From Escherichia phage vB_ESM-pEJ01, in sequence record OP114734.1: DNA of 64,000 nucleotides, one strand, 5' to 3'. Positions 5,486-56,143 of this stretch are shown one piece after another. The notes below the pieces were generated by a model. It made no database searches. It was not told where the DNA came from and saw only the letters and a list, made by a program, of their open reading frames with translations. The stretch's first letter is position 1; each line of letters begins with the position of its first letter. The position numbers and the translations under genes are program-made.

Positions 5486-6877
5486 TCAAATATAGTCTAC
5501 TCGATACCTCGCACGGGTAACACCCACATATAATAACTGCATTGCCAATTCAAAGTCAACATTGTCTGTACACATGCAAGGAGTATACAGGAACACGCGG
5601 TCTACGCTGATCCCTTGTGACTTATGAATGGTGCAAGCTGGTAATGCTTTTACATTCAAGAACATACGCTTCATCGTCCAGAATGAATCCCAATCTGGTT
5701 TAAATTTTGGATTCTCTTTCTTCATTTCGCGATATTGTCCGGCGACCGTATTCAGATAGATAGAGAAAATGTTCTTCTGACGTTGTTCTGTCAGAATGTT
5801 GATTTCTACTAAATCTGGTTTATCTGTAGTGATTCCGACTGCATCTAAACCTACTTTCTGATTTAGGATTTCTTTGTCTTCGTCATCATCGACGCTTTCC
5901 ACTTTCAGAGTATATCCTAAAACTGGTTGCGGATCTACCCCCGTGCAACGTAATGTAAATTCACGCGGGATGACCTCTTTAACTCGGATCATCTCACCAT
6001 TGTTAAAAATAACATTGGGAATCTTCTTCCCGCGTTCATCTCGCAGATATTCGATCAATGGTTCCTGAGTAACCAGAATTTCATCTACAATCACTGGTTC
6101 ATCGGTGTTATAAACGCGCTTACGTACAATTTCATTGAGTTTTTCGACGCTCTTGTTAGTGTAGGCCAGAATACGGTTTTCTAGAAGGTCTTCCGGCGTT
6201 TTAACGGTTTCGAAATAATGCTTCATAAACTCCGGCAGAGTTGAGCTATGGAATACACCCTCGTTGCCGCACTGCTTTTCGAATACCCATTTACCATTAC
6301 GGACAGCGGTCGCCACATCAATTATTGGCGCATTAGATCGTTTAATCTCTGTAAGTTCTACATTCTGAAACCTTTCATCGGTGAAGAAAGGAGAGATCGA
6401 CGTTGCACCGCTCGGATCAACTGGTCGTAACTGGTACAGATCACCCACGGCAATAATAACAATTCGACCGTTGATACTCTTCATGAGAATATCAAATAGT
6501 TTCTTATCGACCATACTCGCTTCATCAACAATGATGATCTGAACATCATCTAGCTTAGGAGTATCTTTTTGCTCAAATACTTGAGTATCTTCATAGTTGG
6601 TCGGGTTTAGTCGCAGTAGTGCATGTAAAGTAAATGCTTGACGACCTACCGCTTTACTCAAAACTTTTTTAGCCTGGTGGGTAGGCGTTGCCAAAACCAC
6701 ACCAGTTACACCACGACGGACCATTTCCTGAACAATGAATTTCATCATTGCGGTTTTACCAGTACCCGCCGCACCACGGACAGTTGTATGCTTCTTTTGT
6801 TCAATGCGTTTCATTAGAACATCAAAAGCATGTTTTTGCCCGTCTGTTAACATATCGAAAGTTAATACTCTGCTCAT
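5486..6877 (-). CDS. dda: Dda DNA helicase (SF1)
   Basis: Walker A GAAGTGKT; FTEIKRSNAPIIDVATAVRNGKW and C-terminal LLYVGVTRARYRV match remembered T4 Dda; GAGGA SD. Confidence 0.92.
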   Translation of the reverse strand: MSRVLTFDMLTDGQKHAFDVLMKRIEQKKHTTVRGAAGTGKTAMMKFIVQEMVRRGVTGVVLATPTHQAKKVLSKAVGRQAFTLHALLRLNPTNYEDTQVFEQKDTPKLDDVQIIIVDEASMVDKKLFDILMKSINGRIVIIAVGDLYQLRPVDPSGATSISPFFTDERFQNVELTEIKRSNAPIIDVATAVRNGKWVFEKQCGNEGVFHSSTLPEFMKHYFETVKTPEDLLENRILAYTNKSVEKLNEIVRKRVYNTDEPVIVDEILVTQEPLIEYLRDERGKKIPNVIFNNGEMIRVKEVIPREFTLRCTGVDPQPVLGYTLKVESVDDDEDKEILNQKVGLDAVGITTDKPDLVEINILTEQRQKNIFSIYLNTVAGQYREMKKENPKFKPDWDSFWTMKRMFLNVKALPACTIHKSQGISVDRVFLYTPCMCTDNVDFELAMQLLYVGVTRARYRVDYI

Positions 6878-7191
6878 TATCCTAAAATCCTCACCTTGCG
6901 AACACAGATAGTATTGAGTTCTCGCCGTACCCGTTCTTTTTCATATTCAGGAATTTTATATTCGATACCATCCCGAACAATTTCAGAAGACCGGATTATG
7001 CCAAATTTTCGTTTAGGTACAACCTTGTATTTCGGTTCACCCGCCAATAGACTCTCACAATAATCTATCTGATCACACATTGACGCTAACGCAGCATCAT
7101 GTGTTTCGCAAGTTAGGACGCGACCTTTCGCGTCCACTGAGTATTGAAAGAATCCGTCTTTATCACGATAACATACAGCAAATACATGCAT
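6877..7191 (-). CDS. hypothetical protein (104 aa)
   Basis: ORF track; start overlaps stop of next gene; no recognisable motif. Confidence 0.5.
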   Translation of the reverse strand: MHVFAVCYRDKDGFFQYSVDAKGRVLTCETHDAALASMCDQIDYCESLLAGEPKYKVVPKRKFGIIRSSEIVRDGIEYKIPEYEKERVRRELNTICVRKVRILG

Positions 7192-31937: not shown

Positions 31938-32447
31938 TCAAATAATTTTCACTGGAATACTATTAACAATCTTGTATTGTACTTGATTGTCAGACCCCCG
32001 CCACGGCTTCTTCGTTGGCATATCTTTAATATAACGCCCATCGATGAACATGTCAACTGATTCTACAATTTTTCTTTGCTCATCATTCAATTGGTCAAGG
32101 GTATAACCAGACCATAGCCAAATATCTTTATTTGGCATCCATGATTTTACTTCATCGATGATCCGCTGTACACCCTTTAAATTGCGTTTATACAGTGGAT
32201 CGCCACCTAAGAATGTTAGCCCCTGAATAAAATCAGGTCTAAGCAGGTCCAGAATCAATCCCATTGTATCATCGGTGAATGGTTCCCCGTTCTTAGGATT
32301 GAGTAGGCTAGCATTAAAGCAACCATCACATGCGTGTGAACATCCGGTAACGTAAAGGGAGACTCTCACTCCCTCACCGTTAACCATATCACAATCTTTA
32401 ATATCGGCATAGCGTAGTTTGCCGTATGTATCAGAACTCATATTCAA
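31938..32447 (-). CDS. nrdG: anaerobic ribonucleotide reductase activating protein NrdG (radical SAM)
   Basis: CSHACDGC radical-SAM cysteine cluster; about 160 aa. Confidence 0.88.
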   Translation of the reverse strand: MNMSSDTYGKLRYADIKDCDMVNGEGVRVSLYVTGCSHACDGCFNASLLNPKNGEPFTDDTMGLILDLLRPDFIQGLTFLGGDPLYKRNLKGVQRIIDEVKSWMPNKDIWLWSGYTLDQLNDEQRKIVESVDMFIDGRYIKDMPTKKPWRGSDNQVQYKIVNSIPVKII

Positions 32448-33851: not shown

Positions 33852-35714
33852 TTACATGTGCTTAACGCGGTTTACCATCTCGGAGTGTTTCCCGTGGTTA
33901 AATGGACGCAGATCAACAGATCCAAGATATCCACTAACGCGACGGATAACATTCATCTTTTCCAGATTGTCATTGCCGCAATCAGGACAAACAAAACCAG
34001 ACTCGGTTGCTCTCATTTCCTTAGTAGATCCGCATACATGACATACATCAGAAGGAGTATTAACACCGAAGTAGTGCAATTTATCCATTGCATAGTCTAC
34101 TACAGTTTCAAGACCTTTCAGGTTGTTTTTCATGTCTGGGAACTCAACATAAGAGATCATGCCACCGGACGCCAGCCAGTGATAATCTTTCTCAAAGTCG
34201 ATTTTCTCAAATGGAGTGACTTTCCGGTCTACGTCAAGGTGGAATGAGTTGGTGTACCAGTCTTTATCGGTAGCACCCTTAACAATACCAAATTTCTCTC
34301 TGTCCAGTCGATTAAATCGATAGCAAAGACTCTCGGCTGGCGTACCGTAAAGACTAAACCCAAGTCCGGTTTCGTCCTTCCATTTTTCAGTATAATGACG
34401 CAAGATCTTAAGAATATGTTTACCGTATCGCTGCGCATCTTCCGAATCAAACGGATGAACACCAAACAGGACGCTCAATACCTCATGTAAACCAATATAT
34501 CCAAGAGAGATACTAGCGCGACCATCTTTCAACACTTCCAAAATTTCATCGTTTTGATGAATACGGAAAAATGCACCTTCGGTATACAGTACAGGAGCAA
34601 CATTGGCTTTAGCCCCTTTTAAAGCGTCTACGCGACTCATAAGCGCATCAAAACAAATAGGCAGACGATTCGCTAGCTCTTGTTCGAATAGCTCAATTCT
34701 GCGCATTACAGACTCTTTACCAGCACGACGCGCGGCAATAAGGGCAATACGCGGAAGATTCAGAGTCACAACACCTAAGTTATTACGTCCGTCTAATACT
34801 TCTTCGCCTTTCTCATTATGCCACACACCCAGGAAGCTACGACAACCCATCGGGCTAACCGGAACACTAGATCCAGTGATGCTACGGTTATTCTTCGCAG
34901 AGATATAATCAGGGTAAAGACGCTTACTCGAACATTCCAATGCAAGTTGCTTAATGTCGTAGTTCGGATCTTCCGGTTTAAGGTTTAATCCTTCTTCTAA
35001 GAACATCACCAGCTTAGGAAACACCGGAGTTATACCGTCTTTACCTAAACCTTTAGTTCGAACTTTCAGGATCGCTTTCTGAATCAGTTTTTCTTCCCAG
35101 CTAGTACCCATACCAAAGGTTAAAGTCACAAAAGGCGTTTGACCGTTGGTGGAGAACAAAGTGTTGATTTCATATTCCAACGCTTGATACCCGTCTAAAG
35201 TTTCTTTTTCTGTCTTCTCTTGTGCATAGAGAGTATCAGCTTTGATTCCGTAGGTTTCGGCATCAGCAAGGTGTTTATGATATGTTTTCTCAACGTATGG
35301 CGCTAAAACCTGATCGATGTTTGCGATTGTGGTCCCGCCATATTGATGACTTGCCACCTGTGCGATAATTTGAGCGGTTACAGCACAAGCAACGCCGATT
35401 GATTTCGGACTTTCGATTTGTGCGCTACCCAATTTAAAACCATTCTCTAACATGTCTTTGAGATTAACAAGACAGCAGTTAGTAAACGGCATAGCGGGTG
35501 CATAATCCATATCATGATAATGAATGTCACCGTCTACATGCGCTTTATAGATGTGCTCAGGTAACACGGTTTTAGCAATCTGTTTAGACACAGCACCAGC
35601 AATCAGATCTCGACGTGTCGGGAATGTTCGCGCGTCTTTGTTCGCGTTCTCTTTGCTTACTTCGTTTTCTTTACCCGTTGCGATCTCTGTAATGTCTTTG
35701 ATTAGTTTTTCCAT
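33852..35714 (-). CDS. nrdD: anaerobic ribonucleoside-triphosphate reductase NrdD (glycyl radical enzyme), uninterrupted
   Basis: 620 aa; C-terminal glycyl-radical motif RRVSGYLGS and Zn-ribbon CHVCG...CPDCG. Confidence 0.93.
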   Translation of the reverse strand: MEKLIKDITEIATGKENEVSKENANKDARTFPTRRDLIAGAVSKQIAKTVLPEHIYKAHVDGDIHYHDMDYAPAMPFTNCCLVNLKDMLENGFKLGSAQIESPKSIGVACAVTAQIIAQVASHQYGGTTIANIDQVLAPYVEKTYHKHLADAETYGIKADTLYAQEKTEKETLDGYQALEYEINTLFSTNGQTPFVTLTFGMGTSWEEKLIQKAILKVRTKGLGKDGITPVFPKLVMFLEEGLNLKPEDPNYDIKQLALECSSKRLYPDYISAKNNRSITGSSVPVSPMGCRSFLGVWHNEKGEEVLDGRNNLGVVTLNLPRIALIAARRAGKESVMRRIELFEQELANRLPICFDALMSRVDALKGAKANVAPVLYTEGAFFRIHQNDEILEVLKDGRASISLGYIGLHEVLSVLFGVHPFDSEDAQRYGKHILKILRHYTEKWKDETGLGFSLYGTPAESLCYRFNRLDREKFGIVKGATDKDWYTNSFHLDVDRKVTPFEKIDFEKDYHWLASGGMISYVEFPDMKNNLKGLETVVDYAMDKLHYFGVNTPSDVCHVCGSTKEMRATESGFVCPDCGNDNLEKMNVIRRVSGYLGSVDLRPFNHGKHSEMVNRVKHM

Positions 35715-52671: not shown

Positions 52672-53370
52672 CTAACCACGGGTATAGTGTTCCAGAACAA
52701 CTGTCAGATGAATATATTCTAATAGATCTTTCCAAAAGTCAACATCTGGTTCTTCCGGCATACCGTTTTTCTTTGCCTCTTCACGCGCGAGTTTAACACG
52801 TTCGTAGAGATCTTTCAATTCTTCCCGCACATTATCAAAGGTTCTTTCTCCTAACTTACACGCTAAAATAGAAGAACGTCGCGCGAGCGGGAATTGTAGA
52901 TCACCTGTCTGATAGATTTCAAGTAGCTGATAACCAACACGCAGAGCATGAGAAAGATCTTTCCAGTTACTGAAATACTTTTCAGATTTGGCTACCTGTT
53001 TCTTGAGATAACCAGACAAACCCCACATCCCAACATGATAGAATTTATCGCGATGTGTTCGGATGTATTCCCATTCTCTGGAGGATTCAATCAACATGTT
53101 ACTAGGCGCGTGCACCATGTCAATAGCGCCGATATCACCTTTACATGCCAGATTGATAAACCGTTTTAGACTAAACATATTAACGTCAATATCGTCTTTG
53201 GTGTTCTTGATACCTTGACCGCTAGTGCTTTGGTCATAGTGTTCTTTCATCGATCCTAAGATAATTTCTTTCGCAGTCGGAACAAAGATACCACGATAAT
53301 CTTTATCTGAATTTTCAGTATCAAGGCCGTATAAGTGAGATCCGAAGACCATTTTAACCATTGTATGCAT
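52672..53370 (-). CDS. minimal nucleotidyltransferase (Pol-beta superfamily fold)
   Basis: hG[GS]-x(n)-DhD signature FGSHLYGLDTENSDKDY near N-terminus; 232 aa with helical C-terminal half. Confidence 0.5.
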   Translation of the reverse strand: MHTMVKMVFGSHLYGLDTENSDKDYRGIFVPTAKEIILGSMKEHYDQSTSGQGIKNTKDDIDVNMFSLKRFINLACKGDIGAIDMVHAPSNMLIESSREWEYIRTHRDKFYHVGMWGLSGYLKKQVAKSEKYFSNWKDLSHALRVGYQLLEIYQTGDLQFPLARRSSILACKLGERTFDNVREELKDLYERVKLAREEAKKNGMPEEPDVDFWKDLLEYIHLTVVLEHYTRG

Positions 53371-53388: not shown

Positions 53389-53982
53389 TTAAACGTATTC
53401 AGCAACAACATTATGTTTAAAATTACCGCTCCTTTTTGGATTTGGATTTTTCAATCGACTATGTATTAAATTTTTGTTGTATCCGGTTGCTTTAGACGCT
53501 TCGCCAATACTTTGATAAACAACACCATTAACACGAATCGGACGAGACTTATTAAACAGTTTATTCAATCCGGCATCATATGCATGGTTTTGGTTTTCTT
53601 GCCTCGTTGCGATCTCAAGATTCCAAACACAATTACAAGATTTTACCCCACTTTTATGATTAATTTCAAGACCTTCACAATCACCTATAAAGTGTTCAGC
53701 AACTAGTCTATGAATATAGCGATATTTCTTACTTTCCCCATCATGCAAGCATACATTATAATAACCATCACCAGCGCGTTTAGGTCGGAGTAGTTTACCT
53801 TTAACACGTTTTATAGTAGGGAACTCACCAAATTGATTTCTCTGGATAAACGGAATCTCGCGGTCTAATGAACGGATTCGACCATAGTTAGACACTTGAT
53901 AAAAACTTTCATATCCTTTAATTGGCTTCCATATCTCAGGGATTTCTACACCATCAATAACAACAAGTTTAAATTCTTCCAT
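53389..53982 (-). CDS. HNH homing endonuclease (NUMOD4-like N-terminus plus HNH)
   Basis: IKGYESFYQVSNYGRIRS (NUMOD4-like); YIHRLVAEHFIG...INHKSGVKSCNCVWNLEIATRQENQNH (HNH). Confidence 0.75.
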   Translation of the reverse strand: MEEFKLVVIDGVEIPEIWKPIKGYESFYQVSNYGRIRSLDREIPFIQRNQFGEFPTIKRVKGKLLRPKRAGDGYYNVCLHDGESKKYRYIHRLVAEHFIGDCEGLEINHKSGVKSCNCVWNLEIATRQENQNHAYDAGLNKLFNKSRPIRVNGVVYQSIGEASKATGYNKNLIHSRLKNPNPKRSGNFKHNVVAEYV

Positions 53983-54001: not shown

Positions 54002-54025
54002 AAGCCAACCCTTTCGGATTGGCTT
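54002..54025 (-). terminator. rho-independent terminator 3' of GrcA-like gene
   Basis: rc hairpin aagccaatccgaaagggttggctt followed by UAUUUUUAU. Confidence 0.45.
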
Positions 54026-54030
54026 GTTGA

Positions 54031-54444
54031 TTACATAGATTCCGTAAAGGTACGGGTGATAATATCAAGTTGTTGTTCGCGTGTCAAGGCGTTGAAGCGG
54101 GTAGCATAACCACTGATTCGAATTGTAAGCTGCGGGTACTTCTCAGGATGTTCAACCGCATCAAGAAGAGTCTCCCGACGCAGTACATTCGCGTTGAGAT
54201 GATGACCCGCGTTACTATTTACCCCGTTATCAATTGCTAAAGGACGGAAGCTAGTTGTGTGCAGTTCCAGCGAATCGACGTCTTCTGCGGTGATCACATG
54301 ATCTTCTGCGAAAGTTTTACTAACAATTACTTTAGCGCCGATCAGTGCTTTCGGTTCGGATACCAGAATCATAGGCGCGAAATGTCCACCGATAATAGTA
54401 CCTTTATGCTCACCTTTCATGATTTGAATTGCTTTAAATTCCAT
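54031..54444 (-). CDS. GrcA/YfiD-like autonomous glycyl radical cofactor protein
   Basis: C-terminal [58 protein letters not shown] closely matches remembered E. coli GrcA incl. glycyl-radical RxSGY motif. Confidence 0.7.
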
Positions 54445-54579
54445 AATTCACCTCTTATAGATCAGGACGTTCGTCATTAATTTTACCAACCAAAACCCCA
54501 TAGAGTTTATCAGGTTGGACTTTACGATTCTTATTGATTGTAGCACGGAATCGACGAGCCACGCTATCTTTATTTTTCA

Positions 54580-55071
54580 TTAGTTGATACCTAAGCCAAT
54601 GAAAATAGGTTGGTCTTCTACATTACCCATCCCAACACTAAGTCGATTCAATTCTAAAAACTGCAATACGCTGTCAGTAAATCCGCGCATGGTAGTATCT
54701 AGGATAAAAATTGTTTTGTCAAGACTACGACCTCGCCATGTGATCGGATTCAGGAAAGTTCGGATAGACGTACAATCTACATTTGAAATATTTACATTTT
54801 CACCGCGACCGCGATCTCGGATCGTTTTGGCATGTTCTCGCGTCGTTGAAACGATAAAGACACTATAGCCCTTTCGCGTATAATGGTCATATAACTTGAT
54901 TGTAGCGTCTGTATGCCCTGTCTGACGGCCTAAATTGATTGAGACAATGGAATCTAGGTCATCAGCAAAATTGCGTCGCTTACGGCGTTCTATGATGCCA
55001 TTTACGGCAGAAATACACGCAGCATAAATCAAATCTTTACTTTCTAATTCTAAATCAATGTCAATATTCAT
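54580..55071 (-). CDS. hypothetical protein (163 aa)
   Basis: ORF track. Confidence 0.5.
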   Translation of the reverse strand: MNIDIDLELESKDLIYAACISAVNGIIERRKRRNFADDLDSIVSINLGRQTGHTDATIKLYDHYTRKGYSVFIVSTTREHAKTIRDRGRGENVNISNVDCTSIRTFLNPITWRGRSLDKTIFILDTTMRGFTDSVLQFLELNRLSVGMGNVEDQPIFIGLGIN

Positions 55072-55133: not shown

Positions 55134-55708
55134 TTATTTTGGATCTGGGAAATTCAATAGAGCATATTCTCCATAAAATTTCCTAGCTGCATTATCATAA
55201 GCGATTGCAGCTTCGATTTCTGTGTCATATTGTCCAAGAACATGTCTTTGTAGGTTGACCATTATACTAGCTCTCCATTTCTTACGCAAATCCTTCCTGT
55301 TACACTTACTAACACCCTTATACACACTAGAAAACTTTTAGACTTCTTCTTTCTATTATGTTGATTTTGCGCGTCGGTTGCCTCCATAAGATTTGGAGGA
55401 TTGTTATTAGCAGGATTACCGTCAATATGATCAATTAATCTAACTTGCGTCCCATGTTCTAGAAACCAAACAACCCTATGCACGAATAGATGAACTCTAG
55501 GAAGACCGTCATCTCTACTATGCCAAAATCTAAGATGACCATCTTTATTTGTTCTGACTTTAACTAAATCGCCGTGTTTATATCTACTCCCTAATGGTCG
55601 TCCTTTGATAGCTTTACTATCGACTCTATAATATAAGATACCCTCTATATGAGCATATCTAAGTTTTATCTCGTTTTGTAGGGATTCATCCCAATATTTA
55701 AAAGCCAT
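55134..55708 (-). pseudogene. HNH-AP2 homing endonuclease split by a frameshift at an A-run (or sequencing error)
   Basis: 55262..55708 carries HNH (LFVHRVVWFLEHGTQVRLIDHIDGNPANNNPPNL); AP2 domain (YKGVSKCNRKD...AAIAYDNAARKFYGEYA) continues in -1 frame as ORF 55134..55325; shift near aaaag at about 55318-55326. Confidence 0.55.
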
Positions 55709-55753: not shown

Positions 55754-56143
55754 TTATACCGGGTCTGGATATACCTTTTTATCGAGTTCCATATGCGGTC
55801 CGTCTTTAAAAGTAACCCAATCAACACCGCAGATAACAGGAACACCCAATTCTCGACCAGCTTGTTTAAATGCATCAGCGATCATGCGGTAATATTTCAT
55901 GTTCCATGTATCCTTATCTTTCGGATACGCTACAACGTCAACCGCGAAACCGTGAAGATGACGAGATTTCATAGTCTTAGATTTACCTTCCGCAACATAT
56001 TTCTTTTGCGTTTCTAGACTACGCACACCTTCCGTAATACCAAAATCGACCGGAGTCAGTTCTAATGCACGATGAACGACTTTTACCAGGTCTGGATGTA
56101 CACCAACAAGCCGATCTTTGCTTCTTTGAGATAATTTAAACAT
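55754..56143 (-). CDS. peptidase M15-like cell-wall hydrolase (candidate endolysin)
   Basis: Zn-binding signature SRHLHGFAVDV and later GPHMELD; 129 aa, no signal peptide. Confidence 0.5.
   Translation of the reverse strand: MFKLSQRSKDRLVGVHPDLVKVVHRALELTPVDFGITEGVRSLETQKKYVAEGKSKTMKSRHLHGFAVDVVAYPKDKDTWNMKYYRMIADAFKQAGRELGVPVICGVDWVTFKDGPHMELDKKVYPDPV

Follow-up and report, generated by a model that had tools for sequence, protein, structure and literature searches.

Why should a phage carry, in its early region, a small protein whose end reads like that of the host's pyruvate formate-lyase (PFL), and what could such a protein do during infection? The question is raised by a 137-residue open reading frame on the minus strand of a 64,000-nucleotide stretch of Escherichia phage vB_ESM-pEJ01 (OP114734.1; the whole stretch that was analysed is called the window below). 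A sequence-only reading of this DNA had proposed a GrcA/YfiD-like glycyl-radical spare part, serving as an auxiliary metabolic gene that supports anaerobic metabolism. Our analysis leads, at a probability of roughly 85%, to the reading that the gene is orthologous to T4 vs.6 (Y06I), represents it in Krischvirus and encodes a GrcA/YfiD-type autonomous glycyl-radical cofactor, which would repair O2-cleaved PflB after activation by PflA.

An intact gene for a stand-alone glycyl-radical protein

The open reading frame occupies 54031..54444 on the minus strand, at the very coordinates first proposed for it, and runs from an ATG start codon to a TAA stop codon at 54031..54033. A Shine-Dalgarno-like GAGGTG (54449..54454, minus strand) can be read from the sequence 4 nt 5' of the ATG, and a consensus scan found a terminator-like hairpin followed by a T run (54002..54025, minus strand) directly 3' of the stop codon; the same hairpin (54025..54002) carries a terminator annotation in phage G37-3. 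The gene encodes a small stand-alone protein, is situated between separate genes, and lacks the catalytic barrel of glycyl-radical enzymes (GREs).

Residues 78-137 (54034..54213, minus strand) constitute a glycyl-radical domain homologous to PflB 699-759, as indicated by Pfam, by sequence matches in the PDB and by the structure model. The Pfam Gly_radical model matched the protein with an E-value of 9.3e-16 (58.7 bits, against a cut-off of 22.2). The top PDB sequence match was E. coli GrcA/YfiD (6owr; E 3e-29), and the second was PflB itself, with residues 77-137 aligned onto 699-759 (phmmer; E 4.6e-24). The GrcA-like C-terminal 60 residues on which the sequence-only reading was built are present as quoted, and their similarity is far above chance: alignment to the two C-termini, the check that had been suggested, yielded 46/60 identities with E. 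coli GrcA and 44/60 (73%) with PflB, while T4 Y06I shared 45/60. Moreover, neither of the outcomes named beforehand as fatal to the assignment (absence of the radical glycine, or little similarity elsewhere in the protein) was encountered, as the glycine is kept (G112) and the similarity extends well beyond the motif, to 56% identity over 102 aligned residues with grcA from an E. coli chromosome.

Among the NCBIfam models the best match was TIGR04365 (autonomous glycyl radical cofactor GrcA; E 1.7e-33). The window protein scored 115.6 bits and missed the equivalog cut-off of this model (170 bits), as did the validated T4 Y06I (151.1 bits). The cut-off suits the bacterial proteins and leaves out the phage branch, and the miss says more about model calibration than about function.

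The codon predicted to specify the radical glycine is GGT at 54109..54111 (minus strand); it encodes Gly112 within R-I-S-G-Y-A-T, the equivalent of PflB G734, and its column was invariant in an alignment of 81 phage and bacterial homologs. In this alignment the window protein kept every invariant column (25/25, G112 included) and matched 41 of the 45 columns that were at least 90% conserved, the exceptions being N78, A79, H81 and T115. Within the loop R109-I-S-G112-Y-A-T115, the residues R, S, G, Y and A were invariant in the 81 homologs, and I110 and T115 occupied variable positions; T115 is the G+3 residue of the activase-recognition loop.

An AlphaFold2 model of the protein was consistent with the sequence matches. 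The pLDDT was 85-92 across residues 91-130, the top Foldseek match of the model was the NMR structure of YfiD (6owr; E 1e-5, 60 columns), and the predicted C-terminal domain superposed on the glycyl loops of several GREs with an rmsd of ~0.9 A over 42 residues. Judging from the model, the C-terminal domain is predicted to adopt the glycyl-radical-domain fold.

The N-terminal half (residues 1-77; 54214..54444, minus strand) proved in alignments to be homologous to the corresponding portion of T4 Y06I, relative to which it has an insertion of ~12-17 aa that is typical of Krischvirus. No Pfam domain was found in residues 1-77, where at E up to 1 there was only a chance-level match to EndoU. Foldseek matches of this half were KOW-like or ribosomal proteins at low probability, and the short beta strands predicted for it were of moderate confidence (pLDDT ~76-83). 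No recognisable domain was therefore detected in the N-terminal half. The N-terminus of E. coli YfiD is reportedly disordered, yet helps radical installation (PMC13450708).

Orthology with T4 vs.6

At the nucleotide level the window region is 93-99.5% identical to Krischvirus genomes, and the window is that of a Krischvirus, an RB49/JSE-like T-even coliphage of the Straboviridae. The T4 counterpart of the protein is encoded by ORF 63.1 (record X04567; 120 aa), with 52% identity across 134 residues; we take this ORF to be the T4 gene named vs.6, with Y06I as its product. The window protein matched phrog_1209 from end to end (residues 3-137 on 1-121 of 121; E 3.6e-47), and so did T4 Y06I.

The position of the gene leads to the same assignment. 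The equivalent gene of phage JSE bears the annotation vs.6 and has vs.8 and nrdC.11 as its neighbours; regB, vs.1, vs and tk follow past nrdC.11. The gene order of the window is that of JSE, with a vs.8-like gene (phrog_1488; 54580..55071), a conserved 41-aa ORF (54455..54580, minus strand), the grcA-like gene, the HNH endonuclease gene as an insertion, and a gene for an nrdC.11-like RlaP nucleotidyltransferase (52672..53370). The 41-aa ORF forms a PHROG family of its own (phrog_13848, E 1.8e-30) and has been annotated in JSE, JK32 and kaaroe. The grcA-like gene is thus, both by position and by sequence, the ortholog of T4 vs.6 in the tk-vs-regB ... vs.6-vs.8 early region. Also in the early region of the window, 55754..56143 (minus strand) encodes a Peptidase_M15_4 protein, the relatives of which are annotated as endolysin or L-alanyl-D-glutamate peptidase.

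The family is widespread: tblastn found homologs in 1580 phage records, which comprised T-even relatives of Escherichia, Klebsiella, Salmonella, Yersinia and Aeromonas as well as T5-like phages with shorter forms, whose proteins match residues 51-137 of the window protein. Phage FL20 encodes a protein that is 100% identical. Taken together, the sequence comparisons support assignment of the window protein to the autonomous glycyl-radical proteins of the GrcA/YfiD type (IPR011140 / TIGR04365 family), as the ortholog of T4 vs.6/Y06I.

Much of this had been recorded before. In GenBank, the proteins of Shigella phage JK32 (97% identical) and of phage kaaroe are labelled "autonomous glycyl radical cofactor". 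A comparison of T4-like genomes in 2006, with the RB49 group included, found vs.6 conserved in 6/6 genomes, reported a Gly_radical match, and speculated on a function in nucleotide metabolism (PMC1524935). According to PMC8683613, which cites Wagner et al. 2001, T4 Y06I and E. coli YfiD are the only two spare-part proteins reported to be biochemically validated. Searching the literature for what the "autonomous glycyl radical cofactor" does in phages returned host-side papers only. The identification is correct but already known, the protein being the ortholog of a characterised T4 protein and already so annotated in near-identical genomes. Publications from 2001-2006 onwards already cover the family, its mechanism and its occurrence in T-even phages, and the identification therefore adds no new biology.

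A putative repair part for host pyruvate formate-lyase

For Y06I and YfiD, the published accounts describe how PFL-AE installs the glycyl radical and how O2-cleaved PFL regains activity once the activated protein has bound to it (PMC8683613, PMC13450708; citing Wagner et al. 2001). By analogy with these characterised homologs, the following course of events can be proposed for the window protein. Under anoxic or microoxic infection, host PflA (the PFL-activating enzyme, a radical SAM protein) would generate the radical by hydrogen abstraction at Gly112, within the RISGYA loop. When host PflB is cut by O2 at Gly734, the truncated enzyme would be bound by the activated protein of 137 aa, the C-terminal domain of which (residues ~78-137) would substitute for the lost PflB 699-759. 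Conversion of pyruvate to acetyl-CoA and formate would be restored, and hence the supply of energy and acetyl-CoA during infection. The activation by PflA, the docking on the cleaved enzyme and any benefit to the phage are thus all extrapolated from the homologs.

Both PflB and PflA are supplied by the host. A match to the grcA-like segment was present in every complete E. coli genome searched (5426/5426), and the ten matches listed were all in grcA. The phage would, like T4, carry a repair part for the oxygen-sensitive PFL of its host, which is in keeping with life in the gut, where the host meets anoxic and microoxic conditions in turn. The auxiliary-metabolic role initially suggested for the gene agrees with the accepted view, as its ortholog Y06I is reported to have been validated for PFL rescue (PMC8683613).

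A second possible client is encoded by the phage itself. As the sequence-only reading had claimed, the phage has both NrdD (class III RNR) and NrdG, which are found in the window at 33852..35714 and 31938..32447 respectively, and NrdG had been suggested as a possible activator. The grcA-like protein might accordingly be a spare part for phage NrdD which is activated by phage NrdG and protects dNTP synthesis rather than host fermentation. Nucleotide metabolism was also the guess of the 2006 comparison (PMC1524935), and spare parts for other GREs may exist according to the literature (PMC8683613). The C-terminus of the phage NrdD (33852..34100, minus strand) has a zinc ribbon (CxxC...CxxC), after which comes the glycyl loop RRVSGYLG; the loop has the string RVSGY in common with the PFL-type proteins, while the domains are otherwise unrelated in sequence.

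Beyond this string, however, the two phage proteins have no significant similarity. BLASTP of the window protein against the phage's own NrdD produced nothing significant (best E 0.34), and of an NrdD-type glycyl-radical domain only the pentapeptide RxSGY was shared; the grcA-like protein is also without the zinc ribbon. PflB 699-759, on the other hand, matched at 44/60, and the T4 ortholog reportedly works with PFL and PFL-AE (PMC8683613). A spare part for NrdD is accordingly a very improbable reading and was ruled out by the lack of significant NrdD similarity. NrdG likewise is an unlikely activator, since the grcA-like protein has no significant similarity to NrdD beyond R(V/I)SGY. Because the protein resembles PflB and not NrdD, the host PFL activase would be the likelier of the two to activate it.

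A mosaic gene linked to an adjacent homing endonuclease

Alignment of the grcA-like gene with its orthologs from JK32, G37-3, FL04, RB49, kaaroe and JSE revealed a mosaic. Codons 1 to ~60 were almost identical across the aligned orthologs (pS 0.03-0.10, and 0.07-0.10 against RB49 and JSE). The last 60 codons were strongly recoded relative to RB49, kaaroe and JSE (pS 0.63-0.69, pN 0.18-0.21); against RB49 in particular, pS was 0.67 and pN 0.18 (pN/pS ~0.26), which corresponds to a dS of ~1.7 and a dN of ~0.20 (dN/dS ~0.12), so that selection on this half is purifying. Because the genome outside the recoded 3' half is ~94% identical, the 3' half is an imported, strongly diverged allele in which purifying selection was retained. 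Recent capture of this half from the E. coli host was ruled out, since among the matches listed from 5426 E. coli genomes the best nucleotide identity was ~72%, in grcA.

On its 3' side the grcA-like gene adjoins a free-standing homing endonuclease gene with NUMOD4 and HNH domains (53389..53982, minus strand; Pfam NUMOD4 1.7e-18, HNH_3 2.5e-10). RB49 and most relatives are without this gene, and the downstream flank (nrdC.11) is again ~99% identical. At an amino acid identity of at least 96%, the endonuclease was found in exactly eight phage records (MIZ4, MIZ5, FL20, LF73P4, JK32, AV108, FL04 and G37-3), i.e., 8 of the 58 related records; the next-best matches were below 45% identity and came from phages of Gram-positive hosts. 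The window-type 3' end of grcA (54031..54260), at a nucleotide identity of at least 92%, was found in the same eight records only, every other record reaching at most 80%. The 3' 230 nt were identical in five independent isolates.

The locus at 53389..53982 therefore combines nuclease and DNA-binding modules, sporadic presence and a flanking allele linked to that presence, the features by which a free-standing homing endonuclease is recognised. Endonuclease and linked flank together would be the pattern expected of such an element when it co-converts the adjacent conserved sequence or is immune through it. The free-standing Seg and Mob endonucleases of T-even phages practise intronless homing.

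At the same vs.6/nrdC.11 junction, JSE carries a different, weaker-scoring NUMOD4/HNH_3 endonuclease (6385..6915; 176 aa), and the vs.6 gene of JSE has a diverged 3' end of its own, which is yet another allele. The different HNH-type endonuclease of JSE at the same site may reflect independent targeting of the same gene. Mobile endonucleases seem to have settled at this junction more than once.

A consensus scan also detected a sigma-70-like promoter match inside the 3' end of the grcA-like coding sequence (54059..54087, minus strand; TTGACA-17-TATTAT with the TG of an extended -10, 11/12). The match is formed by allele-specific codons and points towards the endonuclease gene, and the RB49 allele has a weaker -10. 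The terminator-like hairpin at 54025..54002 stands between the promoter-like match and the ribosome-binding site of the endonuclease gene.

These features could be brought together in a tentative proposal, which we hold with more doubt than confidence: the conserved vs.6/grcA sequence coding for the glycyl-radical motif may be what the adjacent NUMOD4-HNH endonuclease targets in homing, and the unusual residues of the allele may be cleavage-immunity substitutions which are carried with the endonuclease gene and which also create its sigma-70-like promoter. If this is true, a selfish element, and not metabolism, shapes the sequence of the radical loop.

Alternatively, the recoded allele could differ in function, through either a shift in partner specificity (towards TdcE or another host GRE of the formate-lyase type) or the action of a decoy that titrates PflA instead of repairing PflB. 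The allele is off the consensus at T115 (G+3), I110, R122, L126 and the 78-81 segment. Its glycyl-radical domain is also less GrcA-like than that of T4, with 14 substitutions from E. coli GrcA in 60 residues (46/60), whereas the C-terminal 40 residues of the T4 protein are identical to GrcA. We nevertheless regard a functional shift as improbable: i) all of the invariant positions are retained; ii) selection on the diverged half is purifying; iii) linkage to the neighbouring homing endonuclease explains the substitutions better; iv) no other GRE is more similar to the protein than PflB.

Still less credible is that homing-endonuclease traffic has damaged the gene and left a decaying, non-functional remnant. 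The surrounding region is indeed rich in mobile endonuclease genes, one of which is frameshifted (55134..55708), and the 3' half is a recombinant patchwork. The frame, however, is intact and accompanied by a ribosome-binding site and the terminator-like hairpin, dN/dS is as low as ~0.12 in the diverged half, and identical copies recur in several isolates (the whole protein in FL20, the 3' 230 nt in the five independent isolates), on which grounds a pseudogene was ruled out. Conservation of the gene in all six T4-like genomes compared earlier (PMC1524935) and the homologs in 1580 phage records likewise argue against decay.

The frameshifted gene at 55134..55708 (minus strand) is a second homing-endonuclease-like gene, with HNH_3 and an AP2 DNA-binding domain, and is split into ORFs of 148 and 63 aa. 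JK32, JSE and FL04 have this gene intact, at 191 aa; compared with theirs, the window copy has lost 1 nt from an A5 run at ~55339. The resulting split is either a real frameshift (in which case the gene is a pseudogene) or a homopolymer sequencing error.

With the grcA-like gene read as an intact PFL repair part, the strict link between the recoded allele of its radical domain and the neighbouring homing endonuclease is the sole new angle of the locus, and the phenomenon is of a known kind. The linked allele supplies naturally occurring, apparently tolerated substitutions in the surroundings of the radical glycine, and the endonuclease and its putative target are a candidate new pair.

Comparison with known systems

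The endonuclease part of the locus resembles the Seg and Mob endonucleases of T-even phages, in that it occurs sporadically among near-identical genomes and is strictly linked to a recoded flank of an adjacent conserved gene. It differs from them in that the candidate NUMOD4-HNH endonuclease is less than 45% identical to anything outside its eight phages.

Among the relatives of the grcA-like protein, the short phage and bacterial proteins of the GrcA2/GrcA3 type (~80-90 aa, e.g., in T5-like phages) share the glycyl-radical domain with it (NF038360, 1.8e-29; NF008341, 2.3e-25), but are without the N-terminal half that is present in the T-even and enterobacterial forms. The C-terminal domain of PflB is alike at 44/60 positions and has the same loop around G734, the two proteins ending in ITRTFTESM (window) and ITRTFTQSM (PflB). 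The window protein, however, is without the catalytic barrel of ~700 residues, including the Cys418/Cys419 active site, and therefore cannot be an enzyme on its own. E. coli GrcA/YfiD (127 aa; 6owr) agrees with it in having 56% identity over 102 aa, 46/60 in the domain and a corresponding predicted C-terminal fold, although the first ~35 residues of the window protein are unaligned; moreover, GrcA is encoded by a stress-induced gene of the host, whereas the window protein is encoded by a gene of the phage early region.

T4 Y06I (vs.6, ORF 63.1, 120 aa) is also among the closest known systems. The window protein is 17 aa longer owing to the insertion in its N-terminal half, and the two differ within the C-terminal 60 residues (45/60 identical), where the window has RISGYAT and T4 has RVSGYAV and LTPEQQRDVIARTFTESL. 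In other respects they agree: both are small stand-alone proteins that align over their full length, belong to the same PHROG, are encoded in the same early-region neighbourhood and possess a corresponding glycyl loop and C-terminal domain.
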